Source of the DNA: a virus
Virus record (IMG/VR): IMGVR_UViG_3300032242_001280
Reading direction: 5' to 3' (one strand)
Length of the DNA: 64,000 bases
Part shown: positions 9,301 through 63,134 of the stretch, one piece after another
Layout: each line of letters opens with the position of its first letter
How positions within the stretch are numbered: the first letter of the stretch is position 1
Position numbers and translations under genes: made by a program
Notes under the pieces: model-generated
Seen by the model: only the letters and a program-made list of their open reading frames with translations
What the model was told of the DNA's origin: nothing
Databases searched by the model: none

Positions 9301-12300
9301 ATTCCGCTATCAACTCCTATTTTACCAAATACTACTGTTACTAGCATTGATTCTGTAAACAACATTGTTTATATTAGTACTGCAATAAATTCTGATATTG
9401 CAGCAGGGTTGTATCTGACTTTTGATAATAGTTCCGATCAAATTCATCTTGTTCCAGTTAAGCAAGTATCAGATGGCGACAATGTTATTGCTATGGAAGG
9501 TGAAATAAACCAAGGAAATGTGTATTTTTATGATTCTGGCGTTTGGAATCTTGCTCAACTAAGAAATAGTCGTCCACAATTTCCGTTGTTTGATGTCATT
9601 GATATTAATGGATTTAGTTTAAGTGATACTACAGTTTATCCAAGTAGTAATTTTCGTGGTAGCAAACTTTTTGGATATGCAATTGGAAACTTAACTTCAA
9701 TTACTGATACTGTACTTGGATTTCCTTTAGTTAGACAATCTGTTGGAAATATTGGAGATATAGTTTTTGAAAATTATTATATTACTGATACATTTAACTA
9801 TAATTTAAATTTTAAAGACAACATTACTAATGTCAGTACAGGGTTTGTAGCAAGAATAAACTACTGGAAAAATTATTTTTTTGAAAATGGGTGGACTGTT
9901 GTATCTGATAAAAGCAAACAATATATTACAAAAATCTTTACTGCAAACGAAGCAAAGAAAAATAATTTTGATCTTGAGTTAGTATATAAGCACAGCTATT
10001 ATGAAAATAATATATTTGTGTATGTCAATGGAATTGTTGTTCCATCAACCGCATATACTGTGCAAATTAATAATATTACCACTACTATTAAATTTAATAC
10101 TGATTTGGCGGCAGGTGACAGGTTGTTTGTAAAGATAAATGGCGTTAGTAATATTTTTAAACAAAATTATACTATGCCTAAAAATATTACTAACAACAGT
10201 GAAAATTTAAATTTTAACACCATCACCCTTGGTCAAATTAGAAATCATTTGATTGAAATTGGCAATAATTGTTTAAATTTAAACGGTGAACCAGCGGGTA
10301 GTAATAATTTTAGAGATATAAACTACTCAAATATTGGTGGTAAACTTTTACAACATAGTTCAAGTTTAAGACAAGCATCTTTGCTATTGGCAAATCCAGA
10401 TGTTGATCCAGTTCGTGCCATTACATACTCAGAAAACAATTATCAAAATTTTAAAAATCAGTTAATTGATTTAATTAATAATAAAGAATTTCCTGATCCA
10501 AAAGATGCTCGCGGTTCACTAGATTTAATTTTATCAGATTTTATTAAATTAACAAACACTAACAGCACATTTTATTATACTGACATGTTAGCAACTGGTA
10601 GTCAATATATTACTAACAGCTACACTATACAAGATACCACATATCGTTCTTTCAATCTTACCAATACATATGCAAATAAAAAAAGTAGTTACAATGCTGT
10701 TCTTGTTTATCTAACTAATAAATTATATGGTACACGGCAGTTATTAGTCAACGGGGTTGATTATACGATTAACAATTTTACCGTAACAATATCATCTACT
10801 GTTAGCATTTCAAGACTTGATACTATAAGCATTTATGAATATGCAAGTACCCTTGGATGCAATGTTCCTGCAACGCCAAGCAAACTAGGATTGTATCCTA
10901 AATTTGTTCCACAGAAAATTTTAGATGATACATATTACACGCCACAACATATGATAATTGGACATGATGGAAGTTACAATCTTGCATGGAACGATTATAG
11001 AGATGATATTTTATTAGAGTATGAAAAGCGTGTATTCAATAATATTGCAGTAGATTATCAAAATAACAGTGACTATAGTTTAGTAAGTGTTGTTCCTGGC
11101 GCATTTAGAGTAACAGATTATAGCATTGTAGAATGGACACAACTATTAAGCGGCAGCTACCTTAGCTGGAGCGGACAAAACAATGTAGATATTTTTACTA
11201 ATAACAATAACACAAATTCACTGTTTGGATTTAATTATAGCAAAGCAACCGATAAGTTATTTGGACAAACACTGCCTGGATATTGGCGTGGAATTTATAA
11301 TTATTTTTATGATACTGACAAGCCACATACAAACCCATGGGAAATGCTAGGGTTTACCGAAAAACCAAAGTGGTGGGATAATCGTTATGGCGTAGCGCCT
11401 TATACAAGTCAAAATATTACCTTGTGGGGAGATTTAGAACTTGGATTAATTTATAACGGTGCGCCAAATAAAAGTTACATTGATTCAAAATATACAAGAA
11501 CTGGGCTAAATCAAATAATACCAGTAGATGAACACGGCAACTTGTTGCCGCCACTGAAATCTTTAATTGCAGAATATGATTCAAGAACAGCCAATGATAA
11601 TTGGAGAGTTGGCGATCAAAGTCCAGCAGAAACTGCATGGAGACGCAGCAGCAGTTATCCTTTTGCAATGCAAATTGCTTGGTTCTTGGCAAAACCCGCT
11701 GAATATTGTGCATTGAATTATAATTCTCGTGATGTTGTTTACAACGAATTGCTAGGACAAATAATAAATCAAAAAACAAATACTCGTATTTTTGATTATG
11801 GCATCACTAGTGCAAGTGAATTTGTTCCTGGTTTCAATGTTTGGGTGCGTGATTTATTAACCAGTAATAATTTAGATGTAACTTATAACTGGTTAGACAT
11901 TGCTATGAATAGTAGTTTTAATTTAGTTTATAAAATGTCTGGTTATACTGACAAAAGTTATTTGACAGTTGTTGCTGATCAAGTAAGTCCTGCTAGTACA
12001 AATAATAGTGTGCTTATACCGCCAGAAAATTACAAAATTAAAGTTACAAAAAGTGCACCAATAGGAAGAGCAATCTATAGCGCAGTTATAGTACAAAAAA
12101 CTAGCACAGGATATCAGATATCTGGATTTGATAAGATTCGTCCATATTTCTTAACAATTCCTAGCAAAGCAAGTGGCAATAGCTATGGACTAACAGTGGG
12201 GCAGCTTACTGGAATAATTTATAAAGACGCACAAGATACTGTTACTAGTTTTCCTTATGGCACGATATTTTCAACACATCAGCAAGTTGTTGATTTCTTA

Positions 12301-15300
12301 ATAAGTTATGGCAGATATCTAATAAACCAAGGGTTTATCTTTAATGATTTGCTTGCAGATAACCAAACTGTAAGTGATTGGACGCTAGCTGCTAAAGAAT
12401 TTTTATTTTGGGATCAACAAAATTGGGGTAACAATACTGTTATTGGATTAACTCCAACTGGAACTTCTGTAAATTATAGCAATGTATTTGGTGTAGTAGA
12501 TAAGATCACAAACGACCAATCATATACTAAAGTAATCGACAGTGATGGTACTACATTAACTGGCAGAGATTATCGTGTTTATAGAGATGATAATAACTTT
12601 AGCATTTCACTAAAGAATCCGCAAAAAGGTATTCATCTATTAGATATTTTTATAGTTCAGTATGAGCATTGTTTAGTTTTTGACAACTCAACAGTGTTTA
12701 ATGACATTTTATATGATGAACAAGTTGGAAGTCGTCAATTTAGATTGCGCCTAGATGGTGTCAAAACTCAAGGATGGAATGGAAGTCTATACGCGCCAGG
12801 ATTCCTAGTAAATTACAGCGATGTTGCTAATTGGACATCGTATACTGATTACTATACTGGAGATATTGTTTTATTTAAAAATCAATACTATGCCGCTAGA
12901 AATTTCATTCCCGGAGCAGTTAAATTTAATTCAACTGATTGGTATAAAATTTCTGGAGATTTGTTGAAAAAACAATTGATTCCAAATATGACATCCAATG
13001 CTGCTCAATTTACTAATTTTTATGATCCTGACACTGCCGATCTTAATACTAGTGCAGATATTCAAAGTAAACACGCCACTGGTTTCCAAGATAGACAATA
13101 CTTTACTAATTTAGGTCTTGACCGTACAAGCCAGTATAAGTTTTACTTAGGAATGATTACTCAAAAAGGAACACAAGCTGTTCTAAATGCTTTCTTGAGA
13201 AATCAACAAAAGAACATTGACAGTGAAATTGCTGTCTCTGAACAGTGGGCTATTAAACTTGGCAACTATGGTGGTACAAACAATGTTGATAAATTAGACT
13301 TCAATATTGGCAATAGCAAAGCTATTAATAACCAATATCTATTTGAATTTATCGATCAATATGATACTGCAAACAATGAACTAAACAGTATTAAACCAAG
13401 TGATTTATTTCTTGCTCCACGAACATATAATGCTAATATATTTGCACAAACTGAATATCAAAAGCCAATAGTATCAACTGCAGGACCAGTTAATATTACT
13501 GATGCTACTGCAAGTGTGTATGATATAAACAAGATTTATAATATCAGTAATTTAAGCAATATATTAGGCGAGTCAAGCAAAATATGGATAGCAGCAGACA
13601 GTGAAAATAAATGGGGCGTATATCGTTTAACACAAACAAGTAGAGTTAATGTTACTGGAGTAAACCAGACTGGTTCTACTGAAATAACTTTTTCAACTGA
13701 TATACCACATGGACTGAATACTTTTGATTATGTAATGATCAAAGGAGCAAAAATAGTTGCTTCTACTGGCACATCTGGTGTTATTGATTTAAGTGGGTTT
13801 TATAGAGTTAGCAACATTCCAAATGCAGTATCATTTTCAGTAAAGATTGTTAACAATACTACTATTAGCAGCGGAAAACTATCTGCGCCAATGTTTAAAT
13901 TGATAAATGTGCGATTTGGCACAGTAAACGATTTTGCTAATTTTACTCCAACTCGTGGTTGGCAAGACAGTGAAGTTGTTTATATTGATAATGGTCCAAG
14001 TGGATATCAAGTATTACAAAACACTGACAGTTGGAAATTTACAGAAACACGAAGCCCTGTCTTTACAAAACCTAGCGATTTGTATGGTTCAAGTATTAAA
14101 GTAAACTTTACTCAAAGTTTTGCCGCAGTTGGTGCTGCTGGAAAAAATACTACTGGTCAAGTATTCATTTACGGAAAAAATCAAGAAAATGTATGGCAAG
14201 AATTAGGAATATTAACTCCTGAAGCTAGAAGCTCTGGGTTTGGCAGTGCAGTTGATGTAAACAATAATAATATTGTAGTGGCATCCGCTCCATCATCCAA
14301 CAAAGGCAGCGTGTATACGGCAATTGCAAACAGTCAAGCTATTAGCGTAAACCAAATTATACATTATGACAACATTTATATTACTACTAGTACTCCTGTT
14401 ACTCCTTATGGAAACAGTGCAATATTAGTAGATAGCAGTTATGGTCTCGCTAACTTTGCAGCAGGAATGAGAGTCGTTGGTGCAAACATTGCAAGCGGAA
14501 CAGTTATCAGTAATCTTACAACGGGTTTTCCATACAATGTTATTGGAATTAGTTCAAACTTAGCAGTCACTAGCAGCACAATTGCTGGCGGCGCAAATAT
14601 TGCCATATATCCAACACTTAATGCAAATAGTGCGCTTGGAACAAGTCTATGTGCTAGTACAGATGGCAATTGGTTGTTTGTTGGCGAACCAACTCTTCAA
14701 CGAGTATTTGTTTACAAATACCAAATTGTAAATCCAAGCAATTCAAACAGAGTAGGCGATGGATATACAACTATATTTTCATATCCACCAACTGCTTATA
14801 GAATGAATCTTGGTCCACTTGATATTAAAGTATATGTTAGTGGAAAACAATTAGTGCCATATCTAGATTACATCAGAAACCCAGATGGAACAGATAGTAT
14901 CGCATTTAATACCGCACCAGCAAATGGCGCAGCTATTAGTATAGTATATGAAAATTATTTCCAAGAAGTTAATCAAATTGTTACCGATGACCCAACCGTT
15001 TCTGGGTTTGGTTCAAGCGTTTCTTGTAGCTATGATGGTCGTGAAGTTGTTATTGGTGCTCCATACAGCAACAGTGCCTTTGATATAACTTATAAAAATT
15101 CAGGAAAAGCATTTGTTTATGAAAGAACTGTAGAAAATTTTATATCAGATGGTATATCTTCTACTTTTAATTTAAGCAATGCTTTTGTTGGAAGTGATAC
15201 TATTACTACGGCAAATCTTGTAACATACCCTACGGTGACTGTAGATGGTGTTGCTACAGCAGCAACATTTAGTTATGCTAATAATTCCGTAACTTTATCC

Positions 15301-18300
15301 AGTGTACCAAGTCCCGACAGTATAGTTGCAGTATCAACAAATCAATTTATTATTACAAAAATTGCTACTTCTGATTCTGGTCAAGTTGGTAGTAACTTTG
15401 GTCAAGTTGTGCAAATGTCTAGAGATTCGCAAACTCTTTATGTAAGTGCTCCGGGTTGGAATTATACAAGTTATCAAAATGGTGCAGTGTTTGCCTTTGT
15501 CAACATGCCTAAACGATGTGGTATAGCCACTGGAACTAATACAAATGTTAATATGGCTGCAAATTTGCAGTTGCGAATCAATGATTTCTTAGTTACATTT
15601 ACTGGCGGCAATGCGGCTCAGTGTGTAAAAGATATTAATAATGCAAATGTTATTGGCGTAACTGCTAGTTTAACTCCTACTTCTACTGTGCAAATAGTAA
15701 GCAATGATCAAGTAGCGGTGAATAAACTTAGACTTCGTAATGAATATGGTGATCCACTAACTGCCATGGGTATAGTTTCTTGGCAGTTAACACAGAAGTT
15801 GTTTAGTCCAATAATTCAAGACTCAGAGCGTTTTGGTGAAAAGTTAAGTCTCAGTCCAGATTCTAAAACAGTCGTTGTTGGTACTACCTTAAGCAATAAC
15901 AAGATTACAACAACTTTTGATGCAAGCAAGACTACATTTGATATTAATACTATTAGAATCATTGACACGGTTCACACAAGTGGTTCTGCACATATATTTG
16001 AGTATATTGCTGGTAAATCAAATAAAATTGCAGATATGGGAAGTTTAGTTTATGCTAAGCTGTTAACTCAACCAAATATTTCAAGTCTTGATAAATTTTC
16101 AACTGGCGTTGATGTCAGTGACAATTTTATCTTTGTTGGTTCTCCAAACTCTAAAATTCTAGGAAATCAAACAGGCGCAATGTACATATATTACAACGCA
16201 AATTCTGCTCCTGTTTGGAATACTATTAGAGAACCAAGTACTGCTACTGATAGCAGAATGATAGACAGAGTTTACATATACAATTCAGCAACTAGTAAAT
16301 TGATTGCAGATTTGCCAGTGTTAGATATTCTTCATAACCGCCTTCCTATCTCGGCAGAATCTTATATTGATTATACTATAAATTATGATCCTGCAGTATA
16401 CAGCAATGTTCCTAGCACAGTAAGCTTTAGTGTTGATAAGAAAAATAACTGGGGCGAAGAACAAGTTGGCAAGCTGTGGTGGGACACTAATAGTATAAAA
16501 TATTTTGATAATTCACATGGATCAAATCTTGAAAAATTTAATAGATGGGGACAAGCATTTCCAGTAAGTTCAGTAGCGATTTATGAATGGATTGAAAGTT
16601 CGCTATTACCAAAAGATTGGGCTGCGGCATATCCATTAAATCCACCGCTGTATACTGTTAATGATGTTTATAGCACAAAAACTGTTGTTGACCATTCAAC
16701 TGGATTAGTTACAACAAAGTATTATTTTTGGGTTCGTAATAGCACACGAGTTGACTCAAATAATGTCAGACCAAGTGCTTTTGAAATTCAAACTGCAATT
16801 TCACAACCTAAACTATCTGCCGAGCCATTTGCTGCAGTAATTTCTAGTAATTCAATTGCGCTGTATAATATTACTAATTTAATAAATGTAGATACTAACT
16901 TGGTAATTGAATACAAAAACACTATTAAACCACAGCTTATTCACAATGAATGGACAATGTTTGATGATGGCACCGATCTTGGTATTGCGCCAGAGTTTAT
17001 CAATAAGATAAATGATAGCCTATCTGGTCAGGATTATAGTGGCAGAGTTATACCAGACCCTACATTGAGTATTGGTCAAAAATATGGCATGGATATTCGT
17101 CCACGCCAATCATTGTTTAGTGATCAATATACTGCCAGAAAACTTTATATTGAAAAATTAAATGAAATTTGCATGAAATATCCAATGGTATTGACTAGAA
17201 AAAGTGCAGTACAAGCATTAAATGTTGGCGAAGCACTGCCGTTGCATTATACATATGTTACTTCTGTTGCAAATTTAACTGAACTTGGTTATCTAGATAC
17301 AAATATATACAATGCAGGTGACTTAGTATTAGTTGTAAATGACAGCAATGCAAAGAATGGATGGTCTTTATATAAATTAAATGTAGAATTTCCAAATACT
17401 AGAACTTGGTCAATTTACCAAGTTCAAACTTACAATGTAAACGATTATTGGTCATATGCTGACTGGTATAGTGACAAATATAATCCTGAGTTTAATATAA
17501 CTTATACTATAGATACTGAAAATCAAATTGGATCGTTAAATTTAAATGTAAACGATTTAATTTATATTAAAAATAGTAATACAACTGGTTGGAAAATAGT
17601 TTTAGTTAATATTAATGGATTAGAATTAATTGGACAAGAAAATGCTACTATTCAATTTAGTTCAACACTCTATGACCAAATATCAAGTGGTCAAGGTTTC
17701 CAAACTAGTAGTCTTGAAACTGTTGGATTTGCAAGCGATTCTAATTTAGAATTTTCTGTAATATTTGGTATAGTTCGTGACCTATTGCTTGTTAACGAGT
17801 ATAGAGTTGATTGGAAGAGTATATTGCGATTGTTGATCGATACTATTGCAACTCAACATTTACAAACTGATTGGCTAATGAAAACAAGTTTTGTTGACAT
17901 ATATCATCGTGTTCGTGGACTTGATCCATTGCCAGTGTATCTGCCACAACCAGAATCTATTGTAACTGATTTCTTTAACGAAGTAAAACCATTTCATACT
18001 AAGTTAAAACAATATGTTGCCAAATATGATAATAATAATAATATTGATTATGCATATTCCAGCTTGACAGATTTTGATTTGCAACCATATTATAACACTG
18101 CAATAAGCAAGTATCGTAGTCCTCAACTAAACAATAGTTTAGATACTAAAATACTTAATACACAATCGCTGTATCAACCTTGGAAGAACCACCACACATA
18201 TCAAATTTTGAGAATAGATGTTTCTGCAAATGGCACTGGATATACTGGTTCAACTACTGTAGTAATTGAAGGCGATGGCACTGGTGCTACGGCAAAAGCG

Positions 18301-21039
18301 TATATTTTAAATACAGGTGTTCATACTATTGAAGTTACTAATCCAGGAACTGGCTATACGCATGCGGTAGCTAAAATTTATGGTCGTGGTTCGGGTGCCG
18401 CTGCTTCAGTAATATTGGGTAATAGTCCTGTTCGTCTGCTTAATACTAATATTAAGTTTGATAGATATACATATTTTAACAATATATCTGATTGGAAATC
18501 AAATAAACTTTACACTGTTGATACGGTTGTTGTTAATGGCGCAGAACCATATAGAGTAATTACTGCTCATACGAGCGGAACAACTTTTGACTTTACGAAG
18601 TTTGCGCTATTAAGAGTAAAAGTATGGTACCCATATACCGAATATGCCGTTAACGATATAGTAATCTATCAAAATACTAGCTATAAAGCAATTAATACAT
18701 TTACAAGTATTGAATTGTTTGATACTAATAACTTGGTTAGTTATAATGGGTTATGGTTAGACAATGCTGCTGATCGCATTTGGGCATATTATTCTCCTAT
18801 GTCTGGTATGGCAGGTCGCGATCTTGCTCAGATAATGATTGGTATGGAATATGGTGGCGTAAATGTTAAAGGACCAAACTTTGATCAAACCCCAGGATAT
18901 GATGTTAATAACTTTGATAGTATAGAATATGATTTAAGAACACAAGATGCTGGCGGCGTGTTTGATGATTATGGTGCACAAGCTGAAGATACCTATATCC
19001 AAAGCGCATTTACTGACACTGGGCTTGGCTTGCGTCCATCAGATATTATTGTTTTAGGTGGCGAGTTTGTTGACAAATACTCAAGCAATGCACCAGAGGA
19101 ATTAATTCCTGGAATAATTAACGATACCCTTGATATCAAGATTAAAACATTGCCTGTTAATTCTGGCAGTGGTGACATAATGATATTCACCAACCAATAT
19201 AGTGTTACCAATAGTTTTAGTTTTGATCCAGCAATTACAGGCGTTGCTTGGCCAATCGGCGGAATTGAAAAATTCTTTATCATTGATAGAATAGCAGGAC
19301 CAATTGCCGAAGGCGTAGATTATACTGTTAATTGGCAAAATAAAACTATTAATTTAAATTACAATGTTAATACTACTACATTTTTCTATTGTATAATGAT
19401 GGGAAGTAATGGAACAAATCCGCTATTTGACCAAGATTATACTGCAGATGGTATTCAAACAGATTTTGTAATTCCAGATAGTATTCTAAACACAGTTCAA
19501 CAAGCATATGTCAAGGTAAATGGAAGCGCAGTTAGTAACTGGGTACTAGTCAATAAGTTATTAAATGGAATTAATACATTAGCTGTTAGATTTGATACCG
19601 CTCCTGTGGCTGGCTCATATATTCAAGTTCACCTGTACTCAGTTGCTGTTGGAACTCGTGCCTATACAGAAATTACTGAACAAACATTTATAACTAGCGC
19701 AACACCTAATTATCCAGCAGATTATACATATGTGTTTAGCAATCCTGAAGAATATCAAGAACCACTAAGTGCGTATTCAATCGTAAGACTTAATGCGTCA
19801 GATTTGATTCCTCCACAGCAAAGTTATTATGTTGGTGATGCGGTGACAACTGCATTTAGCTTAACACGAACATATATTCCAGACACATATGTCGGCGCTA
19901 CTATTGAAATTGAGTTAGCAAACTATGTAGCAACTATATCACCAACAGCAATTTTAGTAATCATAGATGGTGTTGTTCAAAGATACAATATTGATTATAC
20001 TATTAGTGCAGATGGAATAAACATGCCAATAGTAGTATTCACTGCTGCGCCAGCATTGAATAGTAAAATTACTATCAGCGATTCAAGTAATAGTGATTAT
20101 ACAATTTATGGTGGAAACAATCTTATCTTAAATCAAAATATAGTGTTAAACCCAAACAGTGTAATAACTGTTCTTACTAGAGGAAATCATGATCCTAGTC
20201 AAGTGTATACTAAGATTTTCAGTGGCAACGCAAGTAATTCAATTGTTGATATTGATTTAGGTTATGATGGTATTGGATTTGATGATAGTGGATTTGATAA
20301 TGAGTTAAGCACAAATGTTTCAAACGCCATTTATACATTGCCGTTTGCTGTAACAAACATTAATCAAGTATATGTTACTCTTAAATCGCCAGGCACAACT
20401 GGCGGACGACCATTGCTGCCATATTATGATTACAATCTTGTTTCTCCAACTAAGTTGGCGATGAGCAACAGTTTAGGATTATATACTAATAGTACTGTTA
20501 TTGTTAGAATTTATGGCAGTACTATTCGCGAAACGACAGTTGAGTTTAGAATATTCAAAGATATTAATAACAATACAAGATACTATGCTGTAAGACCAAG
20601 CCGTGTAACTCGTTTAAGCAAAGTGTTAAATCCTACTGATGAGTGGGTATATGTTGAAAGTGTAGCCAACTTGCAAAGTCCCAACCCAAAAACTAACATT
20701 GCTGGCGCAATTTTAGTCAATGGTGAAAGAATTACATATGGCACAGTTGATACGGTAAACAATCGTTTAGGAAATATTCGCAGAGGAACAGCAGGAACTG
20801 GCGCAAGTATCCATGAAGTAGGAAGCCAAGTTGACGATGTTGGTTCAACGCTTATCATACCAAACAGCAGTGATAAAGTTATTACTGTAGATCATGACAC
20901 TTATATAACTAATAGTGCTGGAACAAATGTGCTAGTACCTGCAAATGGAACTCTTATGCAAGGAAAAATGTTTATCAATCCTAGCGAAAGTTTACAGACT
21001 AGCTTAACTCAACAAGCAAAGTTTATAAGAGAACCTTAA
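6304..21039 (+). CDS. Giant virion structural/baseplate protein (4,911 aa) with beta-propeller-like and carbohydrate-binding-like modules
   Basis: Uninterrupted 14.7-kb ORF after gp6; starts RRSIDFLPSVF; FGxSV...VIGAP propeller-type repeats, W...Y..GDIV.Y CBM5/12-like motifs, GTGY repeats and FDxxxFD motifs. Confidence 0.75.
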   Translation: MAKRRSIDFLPSVFRTKTNQRFLNATVDQLIQEPSLKKIYGYIGQQDQSSVFRPSDYYINENDSYSQFYQLEPGVVIKKRQKNSNTFTIDNIYNYPDLLNQLVSSGAITNDHQRLFSNRYYSYNGFVDLDKLTNYRQYYWVPTGPLPVDVTASGISLIKEFNVHRISYTANNQTELQSASIGQSGYVIDGYENIVNPTITLQRGGRYTFNLGQKGHKFYIQSEIGTSGVSVVQANINTRDVLGVSNNGSESGTLIFNVPLKTAQDSLISLDTIQNIDMIAHVPYNAMQGQNYDTFIQNYNLDGVKAFSTITLSIDWPFNDGDWLDVPVNQRSGIWQVTIDNNKFLPDGVTNNPNYRNMSLVYLNDWAENTKTFVNQGDKYGHTYVYRNSNGVITQFPTITAPLSTLYYQDADNPLIYGEIRLVDPIPGTFLNINDIIGHDQYTSPNGIKFSSGLKVKFTGVTFPTEYQNNEYIVEGVGTSIKLLKYNELVTPEIINQNVGDVFGSDTIGFDDSNFDGTINAPTQKDYVTINRSSADGNSWSRNNRWFHREVLQYAADKSNQIWNFDAAQQAQRPIVEFIPNLKLFDYGTNYAGAVTVFDSNTTDAFFQIEGQNNYALIKNGKYVSDNRLLQNGQTVIFLNDVDPNVRKTIYQVQSIRPRSSATYNLPTIATSHAGTNTIFLADVGNIKVNQKVTSSLIQQTQPAFTTTASQTSFFCNLISNLGDFDAYYFNVYLNNVLQTNNVDYSVTYQQSVYYTGSSLVTSTVNTINSNNNINLPTIATTYATVVSGSNIISINSGSGIVNGQAISGTGIPVGTTVISGGGTSSLTLSNTCTQSLTSVTVTTYANIQSGQVIVDNGGIFQNGTTVISGGGTQTLQLSKVATATASGVAINVYQASSSYYNPTINFLNKVINSYSFVSTAGQTAYGLVNTSISATTNYRYDVYVNGTLKTITSDYTVSADVNGHPIINLNSAPITGSAVVINNVVTGPATGTTVLVEYIPLSTPILPNTTVTSIDSVNNIVYISTAINSDIAAGLYLTFDNSSDQIHLVPVKQVSDGDNVIAMEGEINQGNVYFYDSGVWNLAQLRNSRPQFPLFDVIDINGFSLSDTTVYPSSNFRGSKLFGYAIGNLTSITDTVLGFPLVRQSVGNIGDIVFENYYITDTFNYNLNFKDNITNVSTGFVARINYWKNYFFENGWTVVSDKSKQYITKIFTANEAKKNNFDLELVYKHSYYENNIFVYVNGIVVPSTAYTVQINNITTTIKFNTDLAAGDRLFVKINGVSNIFKQNYTMPKNITNNSENLNFNTITLGQIRNHLIEIGNNCLNLNGEPAGSNNFRDINYSNIGGKLLQHSSSLRQASLLLANPDVDPVRAITYSENNYQNFKNQLIDLINNKEFPDPKDARGSLDLILSDFIKLTNTNSTFYYTDMLATGSQYITNSYTIQDTTYRSFNLTNTYANKKSSYNAVLVYLTNKLYGTRQLLVNGVDYTINNFTVTISSTVSISRLDTISIYEYASTLGCNVPATPSKLGLYPKFVPQKILDDTYYTPQHMIIGHDGSYNLAWNDYRDDILLEYEKRVFNNIAVDYQNNSDYSLVSVVPGAFRVTDYSIVEWTQLLSGSYLSWSGQNNVDIFTNNNNTNSLFGFNYSKATDKLFGQTLPGYWRGIYNYFYDTDKPHTNPWEMLGFTEKPKWWDNRYGVAPYTSQNITLWGDLELGLIYNGAPNKSYIDSKYTRTGLNQIIPVDEHGNLLPPLKSLIAEYDSRTANDNWRVGDQSPAETAWRRSSSYPFAMQIAWFLAKPAEYCALNYNSRDVVYNELLGQIINQKTNTRIFDYGITSASEFVPGFNVWVRDLLTSNNLDVTYNWLDIAMNSSFNLVYKMSGYTDKSYLTVVADQVSPASTNNSVLIPPENYKIKVTKSAPIGRAIYSAVIVQKTSTGYQISGFDKIRPYFLTIPSKASGNSYGLTVGQLTGIIYKDAQDTVTSFPYGTIFSTHQQVVDFLISYGRYLINQGFIFNDLLADNQTVSDWTLAAKEFLFWDQQNWGNNTVIGLTPTGTSVNYSNVFGVVDKITNDQSYTKVIDSDGTTLTGRDYRVYRDDNNFSISLKNPQKGIHLLDIFIVQYEHCLVFDNSTVFNDILYDEQVGSRQFRLRLDGVKTQGWNGSLYAPGFLVNYSDVANWTSYTDYYTGDIVLFKNQYYAARNFIPGAVKFNSTDWYKISGDLLKKQLIPNMTSNAAQFTNFYDPDTADLNTSADIQSKHATGFQDRQYFTNLGLDRTSQYKFYLGMITQKGTQAVLNAFLRNQQKNIDSEIAVSEQWAIKLGNYGGTNNVDKLDFNIGNSKAINNQYLFEFIDQYDTANNELNSIKPSDLFLAPRTYNANIFAQTEYQKPIVSTAGPVNITDATASVYDINKIYNISNLSNILGESSKIWIAADSENKWGVYRLTQTSRVNVTGVNQTGSTEITFSTDIPHGLNTFDYVMIKGAKIVASTGTSGVIDLSGFYRVSNIPNAVSFSVKIVNNTTISSGKLSAPMFKLINVRFGTVNDFANFTPTRGWQDSEVVYIDNGPSGYQVLQNTDSWKFTETRSPVFTKPSDLYGSSIKVNFTQSFAAVGAAGKNTTGQVFIYGKNQENVWQELGILTPEARSSGFGSAVDVNNNNIVVASAPSSNKGSVYTAIANSQAISVNQIIHYDNIYITTSTPVTPYGNSAILVDSSYGLANFAAGMRVVGANIASGTVISNLTTGFPYNVIGISSNLAVTSSTIAGGANIAIYPTLNANSALGTSLCASTDGNWLFVGEPTLQRVFVYKYQIVNPSNSNRVGDGYTTIFSYPPTAYRMNLGPLDIKVYVSGKQLVPYLDYIRNPDGTDSIAFNTAPANGAAISIVYENYFQEVNQIVTDDPTVSGFGSSVSCSYDGREVVIGAPYSNSAFDITYKNSGKAFVYERTVENFISDGISSTFNLSNAFVGSDTITTANLVTYPTVTVDGVATAATFSYANNSVTLSSVPSPDSIVAVSTNQFIITKIATSDSGQVGSNFGQVVQMSRDSQTLYVSAPGWNYTSYQNGAVFAFVNMPKRCGIATGTNTNVNMAANLQLRINDFLVTFTGGNAAQCVKDINNANVIGVTASLTPTSTVQIVSNDQVAVNKLRLRNEYGDPLTAMGIVSWQLTQKLFSPIIQDSERFGEKLSLSPDSKTVVVGTTLSNNKITTTFDASKTTFDINTIRIIDTVHTSGSAHIFEYIAGKSNKIADMGSLVYAKLLTQPNISSLDKFSTGVDVSDNFIFVGSPNSKILGNQTGAMYIYYNANSAPVWNTIREPSTATDSRMIDRVYIYNSATSKLIADLPVLDILHNRLPISAESYIDYTINYDPAVYSNVPSTVSFSVDKKNNWGEEQVGKLWWDTNSIKYFDNSHGSNLEKFNRWGQAFPVSSVAIYEWIESSLLPKDWAAAYPLNPPLYTVNDVYSTKTVVDHSTGLVTTKYYFWVRNSTRVDSNNVRPSAFEIQTAISQPKLSAEPFAAVISSNSIALYNITNLINVDTNLVIEYKNTIKPQLIHNEWTMFDDGTDLGIAPEFINKINDSLSGQDYSGRVIPDPTLSIGQKYGMDIRPRQSLFSDQYTARKLYIEKLNEICMKYPMVLTRKSAVQALNVGEALPLHYTYVTSVANLTELGYLDTNIYNAGDLVLVVNDSNAKNGWSLYKLNVEFPNTRTWSIYQVQTYNVNDYWSYADWYSDKYNPEFNITYTIDTENQIGSLNLNVNDLIYIKNSNTTGWKIVLVNINGLELIGQENATIQFSSTLYDQISSGQGFQTSSLETVGFASDSNLEFSVIFGIVRDLLLVNEYRVDWKSILRLLIDTIATQHLQTDWLMKTSFVDIYHRVRGLDPLPVYLPQPESIVTDFFNEVKPFHTKLKQYVAKYDNNNNIDYAYSSLTDFDLQPYYNTAISKYRSPQLNNSLDTKILNTQSLYQPWKNHHTYQILRIDVSANGTGYTGSTTVVIEGDGTGATAKAYILNTGVHTIEVTNPGTGYTHAVAKIYGRGSGAAASVILGNSPVRLLNTNIKFDRYTYFNNISDWKSNKLYTVDTVVVNGAEPYRVITAHTSGTTFDFTKFALLRVKVWYPYTEYAVNDIVIYQNTSYKAINTFTSIELFDTNNLVSYNGLWLDNAADRIWAYYSPMSGMAGRDLAQIMIGMEYGGVNVKGPNFDQTPGYDVNNFDSIEYDLRTQDAGGVFDDYGAQAEDTYIQSAFTDTGLGLRPSDIIVLGGEFVDKYSSNAPEELIPGIINDTLDIKIKTLPVNSGSGDIMIFTNQYSVTNSFSFDPAITGVAWPIGGIEKFFIIDRIAGPIAEGVDYTVNWQNKTINLNYNVNTTTFFYCIMMGSNGTNPLFDQDYTADGIQTDFVIPDSILNTVQQAYVKVNGSAVSNWVLVNKLLNGINTLAVRFDTAPVAGSYIQVHLYSVAVGTRAYTEITEQTFITSATPNYPADYTYVFSNPEEYQEPLSAYSIVRLNASDLIPPQQSYYVGDAVTTAFSLTRTYIPDTYVGATIEIELANYVATISPTAILVIIDGVVQRYNIDYTISADGINMPIVVFTAAPALNSKITISDSSNSDYTIYGGNNLILNQNIVLNPNSVITVLTRGNHDPSQVYTKIFSGNASNSIVDIDLGYDGIGFDDSGFDNELSTNVSNAIYTLPFAVTNINQVYVTLKSPGTTGGRPLLPYYDYNLVSPTKLAMSNSLGLYTNSTVIVRIYGSTIRETTVEFRIFKDINNNTRYYAVRPSRVTRLSKVLNPTDEWVYVESVANLQSPNPKTNIAGAILVNGERITYGTVDTVNNRLGNIRRGTAGTGASIHEVGSQVDDVGSTLIIPNSSDKVITVDHDTYITNSAGTNVLVPANGTLMQGKMFINPSESLQTSLTQQAKFIREP

Positions 21040-22675: not shown

Positions 22676-22683
22676 TATAAATA
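22676..22683 (+). promoter_or_regulatory. T4-type late promoter TATAAATA (representative of a TAAATA family)
   Basis: Exact T4 late consensus before a fibre gene. TAAATA also precedes genes at 2455, 2874, 26163, 30642/30646, 33982/33986 (+) and 52072, ~57665 (-). Confidence 0.7.
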
Positions 22684-53486: not shown

Positions 53487-53519
53487 CTCGCCCTCACTGA
53501 TGGAGAACGATGGGGCGAG
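53487..53519 (-). promoter_or_regulatory. 3'-UTR hairpin whose loop is antisense to the gene's own RBS region
   Basis: Stem CTCGCCC/GGGCGAG; enclosed 53496-53507 is the exact reverse complement of 54658-54669. Confidence 0.6.
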
Positions 53520-53521
53520 AA

Positions 53522-54652
53522 TTAGTCACGCACGGCGGCGAGAATATAATCACCGTTCTTTGCATGGTATTCCTTGTAGTTGTTCATCTTGCTAGTCTTG
53601 ATTGGCAACTTGTAATTGCGCAAGATGGTAGCAAGCATCATTACCTGCAGTTCTGTGTCCATATGATCGAGGAAGAAACGGAACACATTATCCAGTTCAC
53701 CGTGCCATGCAGTGTAATCACTTTCCTTCATCTTGTCACCGCCGCGATTGACAAACGAGTCCTTGAGTTCGTAGCAGATAGAAACAGTCAACGAGTACTT
53801 GGCACCGATTTCCTTAGTACGAAGTTCCTTGACTTTACCGTTCAGAATGTCACTAGGATTAGGCATCTGGCTTGCAACCTTACGGTGGGCAGCAAACTTG
53901 AGTGCAACACCTTCACCAACCGTACCGCTCACAAGGTCATTGAGTTCGGTATCGTTAAGGTCTTCTTGCAGAAGTTCGCTGACAAACGACCACGAGCGAG
54001 GCGTAGCAAACGATGCACCTGACGAGCGAGGATCGAAGTTGAACAAGTCATTCTTATTACAGGTGACATATGCAACCACATCAGGGTTGATAGCATGGTT
54101 GATAGCCCAATCATTCCACGACTCGAAGTCAACACGCAAGTTCAAGTGAACAAAACGGTTAGCAAGTGGCGATGGCATACGATAGACTACACCACGATCA
54201 GTATCGCGGTTGCCAGCAGCAACGATAACAACATTGTCAGGAAGTTCATAAGTACCAACACGACGATTAAGAACCAACTGGTAAGCAGCAGCCTGTGTTG
54301 CAGGTGCAGCACTGTTCATTTCGTCAAGGAATAGGAATACCACAGGATACTTGGCAGCTTCTTCTGCAGATGGCAGATCAGGCGGAGCATTCCACATAGC
54401 ATTGCCGACAGTAGGATTGTAGTATAGAACGCCCTTCAAGTCAGAAGGGTCCATGAGTGCAAGACGCAAGTCATACAACTTACCACCCATGCTTTCGCAA
54501 AGGTCTGCAACGAGTTCGGACTTACCGATACCAGGCGCACCCCAAAGGAATACAGGACGCTTGCGACGAGCGCAAACCATGACCTCACGCTTTGCAGCAG
54601 CGAGGGTAACCGTGCGCACTTCGGAAAGTGCAGTGTCAGTGTTCTTAGCCAT
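53522..54652 (-). CDS. MoxR-like AAA+ ATPase
   Basis: Walker A GAPGIGKS, Walker B FLFLDE, AAGN sensor, PLANRF arginine finger, ATPRSW. Confidence 0.93.
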   Translation of the reverse strand: MAKNTDTALSEVRTVTLAAAKREVMVCARRKRPVFLWGAPGIGKSELVADLCESMGGKLYDLRLALMDPSDLKGVLYYNPTVGNAMWNAPPDLPSAEEAAKYPVVFLFLDEMNSAAPATQAAAYQLVLNRRVGTYELPDNVVIVAAGNRDTDRGVVYRMPSPLANRFVHLNLRVDFESWNDWAINHAINPDVVAYVTCNKNDLFNFDPRSSGASFATPRSWSFVSELLQEDLNDTELNDLVSGTVGEGVALKFAAHRKVASQMPNPSDILNGKVKELRTKEIGAKYSLTVSICYELKDSFVNRGGDKMKESDYTAWHGELDNVFRFFLDHMDTELQVMMLATILRNYKLPIKTSKMNNYKEYHAKNGDYILAAVRD

Positions 54653-54681
54653 TTTGTTTCTCCATCAGTTGACTATAATTT

Positions 54682-55411: not shown

Positions 55412-55582
55412 TTATTTTTTAACCCCGTCTGTGAGACCAATTGCCACACATTCGTTAGGAAATTTAGCCCACATTTCCGTGATAAGAGCAGCACGAGATT
55501 CCTCAATGCCAGGAATTTCAGCGATTTCGCTAAGGGTGATGATTTCTTCCACATACTGAGAAAATGACCAAGAATTGCGCAT
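55412..55582 (-). CDS. Hypothetical early protein, 56 aa (not in the ORF track)
   Basis: ATG at 55582 after TGATGGAGA and a cassette promoter; translates MRNSWSFSQYVEEIITLSEIAEIPGIEESRAALITEMWAKFPNECVAIGLTDGVKK*. Confidence 0.85.
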   Translation of the reverse strand: MRNSWSFSQYVEEIITLSEIAEIPGIEESRAALITEMWAKFPNECVAIGLTDGVKK

Positions 55583-55611
55583 CCGTGTTCTCCATCAATT
55601 GACTATAACTT

Positions 55612-55640
55612 AATATAACATGGATTTAGGAGTTGTCAAG
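55612..55640 (-). promoter_or_regulatory. Early cassette promoter
   Basis: cTTGACA-N16-TATATT with TGn. Confidence 0.85.
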
Positions 55641-57916: not shown

Positions 57917-58382
57917 TGTTTAAATTCCTAAATCTTTCTGTTTGTTCAATCTTAGTCTTAAATGGACCGCAGTATTCATATCGTTGAAGAGTAATCAACT
58001 TAGGCGAATACGCAAGTGTCCAAGTATTATCAAATTTAATTACATAATAACCTGCACAATAAAAACTGCTGCTCTTATCATTCTTAGTGTATAGCGGAAG
58101 TTTTAACTTTACATTCCAAATATGATTATGAGCAGTATGACTGGTTGGATAACCATATACTTCATTGGTCTTAATGGGGTTTTTAAAATCTTTTGCTCGT
58201 TTAGAGATAGTAATATTTTTTCTTTCCATCATCTCTTGTAGAGTTGGAAATTCTTCCATGGTATCACTAACGGTACACCGAACGCCGCTAGTAGTTTGCG
58301 CAATGTTCCCAATGCGCTCGCCTTTTTCGTTTTCAATGATCCAAAAACGATTTTCTACAATATTCTTAGCCTTGAGTGTCAT
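57903..58382 (-). CDS. Conserved hypothetical phage protein
   Basis: Start placed at ATG 58382 (MTLKAK); PLYTK...SFYCAGYY...PKLITLQRY--GPFKT. Confidence 0.8.
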   Translation of the reverse strand: MTLKAKNIVENRFWIIENEKGERIGNIAQTTSGVRCTVSDTMEEFPTLQEMMERKNITISKRAKDFKNPIKTNEVYGYPTSHTAHNHIWNVKLKLPLYTKNDKSSSFYCAGYYVIKFDNTWTLAYSPKLITLQRYEYCGPFKTKIEQTERFRNLNNETA

Positions 58383-60416: not shown

Positions 60417-60445
60417 AATATAACATATTTATTGGTCTTGTCAAG
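60417..60445 (-). promoter_or_regulatory. Early cassette promoter (BA14K-like gene)
   Basis: cTTGACA-N16-TATATT with TGn, then TATAGTCAA and GGAGA. Confidence 0.85.
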
Positions 60446-60453
60446 GGTTATTT

Positions 60454-60675
60454 TTAATGTAAGGGGTGTTCAGCTTCGTATTTTTTAATGATTTCTAGGG
60501 CATCTGGGACCAAAACCATGTATATTTGCTCTGCATCGGCGGGTGCTTCGCATTGCAAGTATTCATATATTTCCGTTGCGGGAATTACGGCACGACCAGC
60601 ATAGGTCTGATCACGGATGTACTTTAACATCAAGTACTCTACTTCTTCGTCTGTTATATCAAGGTCTAGTTCCAT
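60454..60675 (-). CDS. Hypothetical protein
   Basis: 73 aa; GAGGA RBS; overlaps the upstream gene. Confidence 0.7.
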   Translation of the reverse strand: MELDLDITDEEVEYLMLKYIRDQTYAGRAVIPATEIYEYLQCEAPADAEQIYMVLVPDALEIIKKYEAEHPLH

Positions 60676-60952
60676 TTTTTTCCTCGTATATCATTGATAA
60701 TAGAACCATATAATGATTCCATGCTTCTTTAAGTGATGGATACTGACTTTGAAGTGCTTTTTGATTACGCCAAGGAACTCTAAAAAAAGCTTCGTCGGTT
60801 GGATTGACATTGCCATTTTCGAGAAATTTGTTTATTTGTTTTACACGGTTAAGTTCAAATTGTCGCCATCCATCTGTATCGTTGCGTGGAATTACACGAC
60901 CAGTATCGTATTCAAAATCTTCACTTTGTGGCAAGTCTGAAAAATTACTCAT
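60659..60952 (-). CDS. Hypothetical protein
   Basis: 97 aa; TAATG coupling; YPSLKEAWNHY C-terminal motif. Confidence 0.75.
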   Translation of the reverse strand: MSNFSDLPQSEDFEYDTGRVIPRNDTDGWRQFELNRVKQINKFLENGNVNPTDEAFFRVPWRNQKALQSQYPSLKEAWNHYMVLLSMIYEEKNGTRP

Positions 60953-61254
60953 TAATGATTACTTATAATGTACTGAACGATGATTTCACTTAACCGCTCA
61001 CCTAATTCTTCACTATCATTGATAACATGCAGTTCATTAAGACCACGATCTTTACGGTCATCATACCGATGAAACTCTACGATATATCCACCATTAGCAA
61101 CATGCAGTTTCATATTGATACCATCAGCACCAATTTTGTTTGAACTTATTGGTCTTATATTCTCGCCAGTATATATCAAGTTGTGTTGTGCTTTTTGTGT
61201 TTCTTCCCAAGCCCGTTTTGATTGCCGTTGAAACCATTTATCAAACCACCTCAT
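60952..61254 (-). CDS. Hypothetical phage protein
   Basis: 100 aa; ANGGYIVE...YD motif; ATGA coupling. Confidence 0.78.
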   Translation of the reverse strand: MRWFDKWFQRQSKRAWEETQKAQHNLIYTGENIRPISSNKIGADGINMKLHVANGGYIVEFHRYDDRKDRGLNELHVINDSEELGERLSEIIVQYIISNH

Positions 61255-61598
61255 TGGAACCGCCTTTCAATATCATCTTCTTCACAAGCCTCGCCATATT
61301 GCGTTTCAATAATAACAAGTGGTTCCTTGCCAATATTAATAACTTGGTGCCAGTTACCAACTGAAATTTTAATAGTTTCACCTGCCTGTAAAACTTCGGT
61401 TCGGTCATTGTACATTGTATCGCTATGATTTGTAACAACTCTAGCAACACCACTTTGCACAACCCAAAACTCACTGCGCTTTTTATGCTTTTGATAACTC
61501 AAGCAATGACTTGGTTTAACAACCAGTTCTTTTACTTTTACATTTCCAGTATCATGAAGGACTGTAAAATGTCCCCAAATTCTTCCTTCACTAATCAT
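61251..61598 (-). CDS. Cupin, type II mannose-6-phosphate isomerase C-terminal-like
   Basis: RIWGHFTVL...VKELVVKP---LSYQKHKKRSEFWVV--G...WHQV-N...IIETQYG--CEEDDIER. Confidence 0.88.
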   Translation of the reverse strand: MISEGRIWGHFTVLHDTGNVKVKELVVKPSHCLSYQKHKKRSEFWVVQSGVARVVTNHSDTMYNDRTEVLQAGETIKISVGNWHQVINIGKEPLVIIETQYGEACEEDDIERRFQ

Positions 61599-61896
61599 CG
61601 TATTTTTCTTTCTGCATAGGAAGCTTCATAGCAGCAAAAGCTGCAGCTTCATTACTATTGAATTGTATATGAACTTTATCTAACCCGCAAGTTAAAAATG
61701 TAAAATCTTCGCCGTATTTGTAACCTGCTTCGCCCATAGCATTACAGATAACACAAGCGGCTTCAACATCACGATAGTTTGCATTTAACGCACCGCCATA
61801 TGACCAATCACCAGGATCAATCATATAACCATTTGATATAGGTCTTTGAGTAAGAGATTTACTTGGAAATTCAAGTATTAAGGGTTTTTTTAACAT
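61591..61896 (-). CDS. Hypothetical protein
   Basis: 101-aa ORF coupled to both neighbours. Confidence 0.7.
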   Translation of the reverse strand: MLKKPLILEFPSKSLTQRPISNGYMIDPGDWSYGGALNANYRDVEAACVICNAMGEAGYKYGEDFTFLTCGLDKVHIQFNSNEAAAFAAMKLPMQKEKYDD

Positions 61897-62156
61897 GCAT
61901 ATGCCAACATAAAAAAACTTACATGCTGTTCATCGGCAAACATAACTGGTAATTCTGTACCATTATCAAGTTGAAGAAATACATAATCTTGACCATTACG
62001 CAACCCATGATGATTAAAAATTTCTTTTAATTGAGACATCGCTATATTGCGTTTATTCCACAGCCCATATCTAGGCGTATTATTTAATTTTGCAAGTGGA
62101 AATCTTGCTATTTTATTTTCGTCTTTGTTATAGACTGAAACATCTAGGTTTGGCAC
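61890..62156 (-). CDS. Hypothetical protein
   Basis: 88 aa, GTG start; C-terminal pattern (G---G-DY-F...F...FM) resembles the neighbouring 101-aa protein. Confidence 0.65.
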   Translation of the reverse strand: MPNLDVSVYNKDENKIARFPLAKLNNTPRYGLWNKRNIAMSQLKEIFNHHGLRNGQDYVFLQLDNGTELPVMFADEQHVSFFMLAYAC

Positions 62157-62442
62157 TGGCAGAACCTATTAATTAATGTGAAGTATTGTGACTAGATTCT
62201 ACAATTAATGCAGCATCTAGTTCCCAGTTATTTCGAATATATTCACCACGCCGTACTTTTTCGTATTGACCATACGGAGTGTTGCGACGGTAAAGGTCTG
62301 CCTCATTAAAGACAAACCCATATTCACGGCAGAAATTGCGATATGCATCCAAATCATTGAATACACGGTTTACAGTTGAATTACGAATCATTTGTTTCTC
62401 TTTTTTCTAGAGGTTAATATTATTATGGAACTGCCAGTGCCA
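62151..62442. repeat. 12-bp perfect inverted repeat flanking the 72-aa gene
   Basis: TGGCACTGGCAG at 62151-62162 and CTGCCAGTGCCA at 62431-62442. Confidence 0.9.
62173..62391 (-). CDS. Conserved hypothetical phage protein
   Basis: 72 aa; VFNDLDAYRNFCREYGFVFNEADLY; own promoter. Confidence 0.8.
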   Translation of the reverse strand: MIRNSTVNRVFNDLDAYRNFCREYGFVFNEADLYRRNTPYGQYEKVRRGEYIRNNWELDAALIVESSHNTSH

Positions 62443-62450
62443 TAGTTCTT

Positions 62451-62479
62451 ATATTAGTCTGATTTCTTTTCTTTGTCAA
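62451..62479 (-). promoter_or_regulatory. Sigma70-type promoter of the 72-aa gene
   Basis: TTGACA-N17-TAATAT within the 3' end of the upstream gene. Confidence 0.65.
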
Positions 62480-63134
62480 TATAATTTTTTTCTATATTGG
62501 CAATAGAAATTTCATCATTGAAATTGTTTTTTACTTTTATATCTGTGTATACTTCAATTATGCGTTTCAAATTTTTTACCATTAAAAATTTATCTACTGA
62601 CATTTTTTTAACCGTTGAAAGTTTTAAATTTAAATTTGCATTTACATTAATAGTTTTAAAAAAATTAATTTCATCCCCTATACAATCATTATAATTTATA
62701 ATATATTTTTCAACATTAAGGTCTTTGTAAATTTCAAAAATATTAGAGTAAAAATAATCAAATTCTTTTACTTTATTAATAAATTTGTAAAGATTGATAT
62801 TAAATCTTAAACCTTCAAATTGTTTCTTATATAACATTTCTTCTATTTTTGAATGTAATGTATATATTTTGGTTTCTTGTGCCACACATTGACTTATTAC
62901 CGATTCTAATATTGATCGTGTAGTTAGTAATAAAACAAAATCTGATGGAATTTTTTCAACAATTTTTATTTGATGAGTATGCTGAATAGGAAAAGACCAA
63001 TCTGGTGCAAGAAGGTCTTGTGAATAAAATACATTATTGTTCAATGACAAATAATTTTTAAAATACTCATTTAGTAGATGAGTAAAATATATGCTGCCAG
63101 TTCTTGATATTCCATATACAAGGTATTTTTTCAT
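62454..63134 (-). CDS. Sulfotransferase-like P-loop protein, very AT-rich
   Basis: LVYGISRTGS (5'-PSB-like), HTH sequence motif, RSILESVIS (3'-PB-like), INYND. Confidence 0.6.
   Translation of the reverse strand: MKKYLVYGISRTGSIYFTHLLNEYFKNYLSLNNNVFYSQDLLAPDWSFPIQHTHQIKIVEKIPSDFVLLLTTRSILESVISQCVAQETKIYTLHSKIEEMLYKKQFEGLRFNINLYKFINKVKEFDYFYSNIFEIYKDLNVEKYIINYNDCIGDEINFFKTINVNANLNLKLSTVKKMSVDKFLMVKNLKRIIEVYTDIKVKNNFNDEISIANIEKNYIDKEKKSD

Follow-up and report, generated by a model that had tools for sequence, protein, structure and literature searches.

A conserved long-range complementarity between the predicted 5′ end of an early phage mRNA and the start of its second gene

In a 64,000-nucleotide (nt) stretch of viral DNA, IMG/VR record IMGVR_UViG_3300032242_001280 (here called the window), two complementary 12-nt sequences flank a gene for a protein of 72 amino acids (aa), and the second of them contains the GTG start codon of the next gene, which encodes 88 aa. 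Computation establishes that the complementarity is conserved and covaries among relatives, that it always involves the start region of the 88-aa gene, and that it dominates the predicted folding of the messenger RNA (mRNA). The reading that we favour, with a probability of roughly 0.6, is that the two copies form a fold-back helix in cis that occludes the start of the second cistron and is opened by ribosome traffic, thereby coupling the second cistron to the first. The element is real and well conserved, and would be a further example of a control principle that is already established.

The locus and its two complementary arms

All genes of the locus lie on the minus strand, and sequences and their order are given here in the sense of the mRNA. 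Its features, including the open reading frames (ORFs), are as follows.

62451–62479, minus: promoter of the sigma70 type, TTGACA (62479–62474), 17 nt, TAATAT (62456–62451), 10 of 12 matches
62427–62442, minus: 5′ arm, with the core UGGCACUGGCAG (62442–62431), UU, and CC (62428–62427), defined by pairing and alignment
62423–62443, minus: possible 5′-terminal mini-ORF AUGGCACUGGCAGUUCCAUAA, AUG GCA CUG GCA GUU CCA UAA (MALAVP*), from reading of the sequence
62173–62391, minus: 72-aa ORF, cistron 1, enclosed by the helix, supported by its reading frame and by homologues
62151–62168, minus: 3′ arm and start region of the 88-aa ORF, UAGGUU (with a Shine-Dalgarno-like AGG) and CUGCCAGUGCCA (62162–62151)
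62145–62150, minus: AACCUA, 3′ half of a lineage-specific hairpin UAGGUU/AACCUA around the 3′ arm, from folding
61890–62156, minus: 88-aa ORF, cistron 2, first of six overlapping genes
60454–61896, minus: five further ORFs, of 101 aa, 115 aa (a cupin), 100, 97 and 73 aa

The promoter overlaps the end of the upstream gene, and its TAATAT is followed by 7 nt and then by AUGGCACUGGCAG. The CC at 62428–62427, just past the core of the 5′ arm, has as its partner the GG in the Shine-Dalgarno-like element downstream. Between the mini-ORF and cistron 1 lies a 31-nt leader carrying a Shine-Dalgarno sequence of the GAGA type. At the other end of the 72-aa ORF, its UAA stop is followed by the four bases UUAA, by UAGGUU (62168–62163), by CUGCCAGUGCCA with the GTG of the 88-aa ORF inside it (62156–62154), and by AACCUA. 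The two arms are complementary at 12 of 12 positions, are the sole exact copies in the window, and are transcribed about 280 nt apart, the 5′ arm first. The initial annotation, made from the window alone, was thus right about a perfect 12-nt inverted repeat around the 72-aa gene (62431–62442 and 62151–62162), and the stems that it proposed, UAUGG/CCAUA, GAACU/AGUUC and UAGGUU/AACCUA, are each found in the sequence.

Downstream of the 88-aa gene, the start of each of the five further ORFs overlaps the preceding stop by 1–17 nt, and the six-gene block ends just before the next promoter, TTGACA-16-TATATT at 60444–60417. The 16-nt junction between the 72-aa and 88-aa genes is the sole non-overlapping junction in this seven-gene unit.

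Conservation, covariation and predicted folding

About 30 distinct versions of the locus were assembled from IMG/VR, JGI, ENA and Logan contigs (L numbers denote relatives), and 20 distinct variants of the window type were used for alignment and folding. Every locus with an 88-aa gene has a 72-aa gene directly upstream, in identical orientation. The pairing is kept in all relatives with this junction except L115, where it has decayed to 6 base pairs (bp). Across the 20 window-type variants the core 12-bp helix is paired in 98% of cells, a fraction that falls to 12–50% when the partner is slid by 1–3 columns, and RNAalifold, unprompted, made the long-range helix the chief element of its consensus. 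Few alignment columns are better conserved than those of the arms, and the coding sequence between them is less conserved, drifting to about 60% protein identity among relatives. Most pairs in the main clade are uninformative because both arms are almost invariant there. At pair 12 the window, L001 and L037 have G-C, L120 has G.U and sixteen others have A-U, and G.U wobbles in the mRNA sense occur at three more positions. Mismatches comprise C.A in L013, A.C in L028, and U.U and A.A. The C.A of L013 reflects the change from GTG to ATG, at an unchanged position, in the only relative in which the 88-aa start is not GTG. This start always lies in the arm or abuts it, and the codons that follow it vary synonymously.

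Beyond the core, the pairing extends to what its sequence marks as the Shine-Dalgarno element of the 88-aa gene. In this extension (G)UCC(A) on the 5′ side always pairs with (U)GGA(C), 7–10 nt before the GTG, and is reached via bulges whose length differs between lineages. The contiguous 12–16 bp and the 2–5 bp past the bulge add up to 14–19 bp. The 5′ arm in every variant occupies a mini-ORF opened by AUG or GUG, an N-terminal extension, or upstream coding sequence.

The strongest comparative evidence comes from the GC-richer relatives L006, L070, L072, L073 and L114, which have no promoter at this place. In these, the 5′ arm CCUGGCAG lies about 80 nt within the 3′ part of an inserted gene of 176–181 aa, and the 3′ arm CUGCCAGG remains next to the GTG. 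L010, whose 5′ arm likewise lies inside the upstream coding sequence, and L071 carry CCUGGCCGGG/CCCGGCCAGG in place of CCUGGCAG/CUGCCAGG, an exchange of A-U for C-G that is synonymous in the overlapping codon (AGG to CGG). The weight of these helices lies in their fixed position and the compensatory change, not in their individual significance. A metagenome scan for further GC-rich relatives gave three loci (L071–L073) with two sequence variants and no new arm sequence. A second 9-bp complement in L006, ATTAATGCA, was taken as chance, being neither conserved nor nested.

In L005 and L014–L027, what follows the 72-aa homologue is another gene or a terminator hairpin, and inspection by eye found no such arms there, which ties the pairing to the 88-aa junction. 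In L114 and L115 (positions 880–960 in each), the 72-aa stop and the next start overlap as TGATG; the arm of L114 has shifted into the coding sequence, at +9 to +17 (9 bp), and it is here that the arm of L115 has decayed. At these two loci the sequences fit the idea that the stop/start overlap and the helix could serve one and the same coupling role.

Taken by itself, the window makes the repeat no more than suggestive, because block shuffling yields a perfect inverted repeat of at least 12 nt with at least 7 G/C, within 600 nt, in 6.5% of cases (mean 0.065 per shuffled window). Of inverted repeats of at least 12 nt there are 11 in the window against 3.8 expected, and the other ten have at most 6 G/C. 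It is the conservation of the arms in relatives that takes the repeat beyond chance. The initial annotation had judged chance unlikely for a GC-rich element in an AT-rich context; the relatives bear out this conclusion, and the argument from the window alone is marginal.

Comparison of the upstream region suggests where the transcript begins. The promoter looks real: TTGACA is invariant in 14 of 14 aligned relatives despite a varying C-terminus of the protein encoded over it. The distance from the −10 hexamer to the A or G before UGGCAC is a constant 7 nt (6 in L059), and the arm begins 8 nt past the hexamer in 19 of 20 variants; from this constant spacing the arm is predicted to start at about +2 of the RNA. 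A sigma54 promoter (TGGCAC-N5-TTGCA) was rejected on reading of the sequence, as the −12 element is absent. The 5′-terminal codon is AUG in 18 of the 20 variants and GUG in 2, and the mini-ORF that it opens has 6–17 codons or, in L013, L062 and L116, runs on in frame into the 72-aa ORF. This mini-ORF may be a by-product of a +1 purine plus the UG needed to pair with CA, or may instead be a leaderless upstream ORF; GUG is a poor codon for leaderless initiation, which bears on the two GUG variants.

Predicted folding gives the helix a dominant place. With RNAfold, the duplex is in the minimum-energy fold of 20 of 20 variants, at a mean pairing probability of 0.85–0.99 and a predicted duplex energy of −26 to −32 kcal/mol. 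The window transcript has a predicted folding energy of −99.9 kcal/mol, compared with −65 after shuffling; its z of −7.9 probably reflects mainly the long-range helix, because the helix is worth −27 to −32 of the 35 kcal/mol gap. Opening the region from −15 to +12 of the 88-aa start is predicted to cost 15–26 kcal/mol in the full transcript and 4–11 without its first 22 nt, so that the 5′ arm adds a predicted 10–22 kcal/mol.

Local structures were more variable. All variants have a predicted small 5′ hairpin (AUGG/CCAU plus ACU/AGU, loop of 3–4 nt, −4 to −6 kcal/mol), which would form first during transcription and compete with the long-range helix. The 3′ local hairpin UAGGUU/AACCUA (−7.7 kcal/mol) is found in the window and L001 and is absent from most relatives; L059–L061 have a different stem around the 3′ arm, GGAUAU/AUAUCU, and L116 folds otherwise. 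Internal hairpins within the 72-aa ORF were dismissed as a conserved element, not being consistently conserved. A search of Rfam gave no match at E ≤ 1 in 61800–62700 on either strand.

A fold-back helix at the second start, its precedents and its rivals

These observations can be joined in a mechanism in which the two copies would be the arms of a long-range helix, formed in cis in an early operon mRNA made by the host RNA polymerase. Transcription would begin, probably, at the A of AUGGCAC, which would make the 5′ arm the extreme 5′ end of the RNA. The 3′ arm would be the ribosome-binding region of cistron 2, with the 12-bp core covering its GUG and the next codon, and the helix would deny free 30S subunits independent loading there. 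It would gate the five overlapping genes too, because all junctions of the unit except the one before cistron 2 are overlaps. The likeliest opener would be a ribosome that terminates at the 72-aa stop, which in all types lies 5–10 nt before the paired Shine-Dalgarno and 15–20 nt before the GTG, and then reinitiates or hands over at the GUG; the opener could also be a ribosome that translates through the 5′ arm. The outcome would be enforced coupling, with the 88-aa gene and its followers made in step with cistron 1 and at a set low ratio. That the helix forms in vivo, where transcription starts, that cistron 2 is repressed and what opens the helix are all inferred from the conserved sequences and their predicted folds. 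Models of coupling by RNA unfolding, with precedents in phages and Escherichia coli, have been reviewed (PMC12548453).

Several points weigh against this reading. A terminating ribosome would reach only the end of the helix near the Shine-Dalgarno and not the 12-bp core, which leaves the opener uncertain, and in most variants the 5′ arm lies outside the 72-aa ORF, unlike the classical arrangement of MS2 and rpmI-rplT. The transcription start is predicted, and if it lay at least 3 nt further downstream part of the arm would be dropped. Covariation among the window-type variants is thin, with one pair changed on both sides, probably in a single event, and 12 of 500 shuffles reach the observed covariation score. 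The 8–10-bp helices of the GC-richer relatives are not individually above the shuffled background. The strand test from G.U pairs is not decisive, with four sense-compatible positions against two antisense (the C.A of L013 and the A.C of L028); the wobble pattern leans toward the sense strand without proving it.

Of what the initial annotation proposed, a long-range duplex gating the downstream gene is supported, as the pairing is conserved, covaries, always sits on the 88-aa start and dominates the predicted folds. Its suggestion of kissing loops did not hold up: the loop context is not a conserved feature, because the 3′ local hairpin occurs in two lineages only, and the predicted loop of the 5′ hairpin has 3–4 nt rather than 12. 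Closure of the mRNA by the pairing is likewise unsupported, since the 3′ arm holds a start between two cistrons of a seven-gene operon and is not a 3′ end. The idea of a possibly undescribed system finds no support either, because occlusion by a distal complement is known from MS2, rpmI-rplT, hok (tac/fbi), icaR, T4 e and the sigmaB-dependent isoforms of Bacillus subtilis.

The closest of these precedents differ from the phage locus in informative ways. The long-distance coat-replicase interaction of phages MS2 and Qbeta is called the Min Jou pairing, and L35-L20 refers to the rpmI-rplT operon of E. coli. In both, as in the predicted fold of the phage mRNA, the Shine-Dalgarno and start of a downstream cistron are paired with a segment hundreds of nt upstream, on the far side of a small cistron. 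The opening of such pairing is attributed to ribosome traffic (PMC12548453). Unlike these, the phage has its upstream arm at the extreme 5′ end, before the leader of cistron 1 and at most within a mini-ORF of 6–17 codons; only in GC-rich relatives does the arm lie in coding sequence, and no repressor protein or pseudoknot is evident in the phage.

The hok mRNA of the hok/sok type I toxin-antitoxin system of plasmid R1 offers another likeness. Its 5′ end pairs with a distal 3′ element, which turns translation off, and a metastable 5′ hairpin forms first (PMC9841398). The phage locus shares with it a 5′-terminal arm, an enclosed small ORF and a competing 5′ hairpin, all in the predicted fold. 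The resemblance does not extend to a hydrophobic membrane toxin or an antisense RNA gene: the 72-aa protein reads as hydrophilic and not Hok-like, no strong promoter faces the leader on the opposite strand, and no antisense gene was seen. The phage 3′ arm is the start of the next gene, not the 3′-terminal fbi, so that it is the downstream gene that would be occluded. In icaR of Staphylococcus aureus, where the 5′ and 3′ untranslated regions (UTRs) pair, a distal anti-Shine-Dalgarno in the same mRNA masks a ribosome-binding site (PMC3868564). Of these systems icaR is the closest match to an AAA+ locus elsewhere in the window (see below), where a loop in the 3′ UTR faces the gene's own Shine-Dalgarno, and it differs from the 72-aa locus, where the next cistron is masked and the masking strand is 5′-terminal rather than in a 3′ UTR.

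The mini-ORF recalls the 5′-terminal upstream AUGs (5′-uAUGs) of leadered E. coli mRNAs and of the leaderless lambda cI, in that an AUG stands at the predicted +1 before a normal leader and Shine-Dalgarno. 70S ribosomes attach to codons of this kind, which can influence the cistron that follows (PMC4965119). The difference is that the phage uAUG region doubles as one strand of the long-range helix. One can speculate, although we think it improbable, that loading of 70S ribosomes on the +1 AUG mini-ORF, which encodes MALA(S/V)P and a few residues, competes with the helix. The message would then sense ribosome availability in its first seconds, and the six genes 280 nt further on would be licensed or locked accordingly. 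If the AAA+ 3′-UTR loop is counted in, this would amount to a general strategy of closed early mRNAs in the lineage, confining early-gene translation to defined windows.

Other roles for the conserved pairing have to be weighed against start-site occlusion with coupling. It might be an element of processing or stability, in which a paired 5′ end protects from 5′-end-dependent decay, or in which cleavage of the RNase III type frees a stable monocistronic 72-aa mRNA and destroys or liberates the downstream start. This is an unlikely explanation, if one to be taken seriously. The 5′ arm at about +2 of the predicted transcript and the conserved small 5′-terminal hairpin would suit it, as would 14–19 bp with an internal bulge, which resemble two-part RNase III sites. 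Against it, RNase III usually needs about 20 bp, and the helix falls short of this. A pure stability role would leave unexplained the constant match of the 3′ arm with the Shine-Dalgarno and start codon, and it would also not account for pairing with a 5′ arm inside coding sequence or for the decay of the arm at the stop/start overlap. The pairings of icaR and of hok have been linked to RNase action (PMC3868564; PMC9841398).

Alternatively, the control could be specific to an RNA isoform. In T4 genes e, soc and 49, and in I-TevI, start sites are occluded in an isoform-dependent way. Similarly, in sigmaB-dependent activation in B. subtilis an upstream RNA structure silences a start on the long transcript (bioRxiv 10.1101/2021.03.06.434181). 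The early phage RNA would by analogy be silent for the block headed by the 88-aa gene, and a later phage promoter or processing between the arms would yield a translated RNA without the 5′ arm. The predicted occlusion of the start site is itself what such control would need, and the B. subtilis case is a precedent, but we find it doubtful here. The known cases require an internal promoter between the two halves, and a scan of the mRNA strand from 62430 to 62170 for promoters of the sigma70 kind found none that matches at 9 or more of 12 positions. The window holds TATAAATA only once where 11 copies would be expected; such strong avoidance suggests that this phage has T4-like late promoters and would favour a later promoter, but the single copy is far from the locus, at 22676–22683 on the plus strand, 19 nt before the ATG (22702) of a 1151-aa gene. 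Every shuffle has at least one copy, and the pattern would be as expected if the motif were a T4-like late promoter that is avoided elsewhere.

A feature read at the level of DNA, whether recombination or inversion sites, the ends of a mobile cassette with the 72-aa gene, or twin operators for one protein, appears very improbable. Inverted repeats do flank a small gene that is found in unrelated phage contexts, and matched changes at both ends would be expected if one protein read both. However, about 30 distinct relatives share orientation and neighbours, none of them having an inverted segment or an empty site, and the ten flanking ORFs scanned matched no family of recombinases or transposases, so that inversion of the segment, an alternative raised by the initial annotation, finds no support. 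The window has one copy pair, with no consistent target-site duplication in the flanks by eye, and a reading as target-site duplication or as a miniature inverted-repeat transposable element (MITE) was rejected for a single-copy element with inconsistent flanks. Bulged extensions of variable length suit RNA and not protein sites, and the G.U intermediate is in the sense orientation. Coincidence, in which a stabilising 5′ hairpin and a start-site sequence are each conserved and complementary by accident, is equally hard to credit. The near-invariant arms of the main clade, where 6 of 12 pairs never vary, and the 6.5% window-wide chance of such a repeat would allow it; the compensatory changes in two clades with a G.U intermediate, the retention of pairing when the 5′ arm is relocated, and an extension that tracks the Shine-Dalgarno despite indels all speak against it.

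If occlusion with coupling were confirmed, it would mean that these phages set the ratios or timing of early proteins by folding back an mRNA, rather than by extra promoters or repressors, and that the first nucleotides of a transcript can act as an anti-start strand for a distal cistron. The arm pair, of 12–16 nt, would also be a compact natural part for enforced coupling in synthetic operons. For annotation, the locus is a caution that the GTG start of the 88-aa gene is real though buried in structure.

A second pairing at the AAA+ gene, and the wider setting

The minus strand between 49686 and 62479 (about 13 kb) carries 13 near-consensus TTGACA-16/17-TATATT promoters that drive short early units. 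The first 40 transcribed bases of each were compared with the 2.4 kb beyond them in search of perfect complements. Those of three leaders, at the 72-aa locus, the AAA+ gene and the promoter at 55639, are 11–12 nt long against a background of 8–9. The features of the AAA+ locus are as follows.

53522–54652, minus: AAA+ ATPase gene
54658–54669, minus: 5′ arm ACUGAUGGAGAA, the Shine-Dalgarno region of the gene itself
53487–53519, minus: 3′-UTR hairpin CUCGCCC/GGGCGAG, before the terminator

The 3′ arm, UUCUCCAUCAGU (53507–53496), lies in the loop of this hairpin. Of 22 distinct relatives 21 retain the complementarity, among them L100, in which the arms (UUGAUGAUGGAG and CUCCAUCAUCAA) and the hairpin stem have changed together with the pairing preserved. 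By its sequence the AAA+ locus, about 8 kb from the 72-aa locus, looks like self-masking of the icaR type. The window would thus hold two conserved fold-back devices that are wired differently. The recurring design suggested by the initial annotation stands as far as a second conserved pairing goes; it fails in the wiring, as the AAA+ gene would have its own start masked from the 3′ UTR and the 72-aa locus the start of its next cistron masked from the 5′ end. In the leader of the promoter at 55639, UGAUGGAGAAC (55587–55597, minus) is an 11-nt complement to the AAA+ 3′-UTR loop 2.1 kb downstream. This leader shares the AAA+ Shine-Dalgarno sequence, and UGAUGGAGAAC may simply share that context. 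The early region also has a 14-nt perfect inverted repeat, TGATAAGAGCAGCA, at 55480–55493 and 58067–58080, 2.6 kb apart.

The 72-aa protein is, to judge from its homologues, a conserved small phage protein: 21 hypothetical proteins were matched in a homologue search, and the gene occurs also in unrelated phage contexts. Its translation, read by eye, is rich in charged and polar residues and has no hydrophobic stretch. Neither it nor the 88-aa protein matched a Pfam or PHROG family, and Protein Atlas gave no usable match. AlphaFold2 models the 72-aa protein as three helices at low confidence (predicted local distance difference test, pLDDT, 66) and the 88-aa protein as beta-alpha-beta-beta-alpha (pLDDT 74); for the latter model Foldseek found nothing in the PDB at E ≤ 0.001.

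An uncultured jumbo phage appears to be the source of the window, to judge by a very long ORF (a single one of 4911 aa, at 6304–21039 on the plus strand) and a clamp-like protein resembling proteins of PA5oct and Atu_ph07. This clamp-like neighbour is 27–35% identical to jumbo-phage proteins (PA5oct group, Atu_ph07) and is the sole neighbour with such a match. Among 50,697 phage records megablast gave no close match for the window, and tblastn with the 72-aa protein gave no match in known phages. To our knowledge, gene regulation in uncultured jumbo phages is almost unknown.

Upstream of the 72-aa locus, between a 103-aa gene and the promoter, the window has an AT-rich ORF of 226 aa (62454–63134, minus strand; local GC about 31%) that matches no Pfam or PHROG family and is missing from the relatives whose upstream flank was read. 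In these relatives it is the end of the 103-aa gene, ...LLDKEKKSD*, that is encoded over the promoter, and the 226-aa insert re-creates the identical C-terminal DKEKKSD*. The ORF looks like a recent gene insertion.

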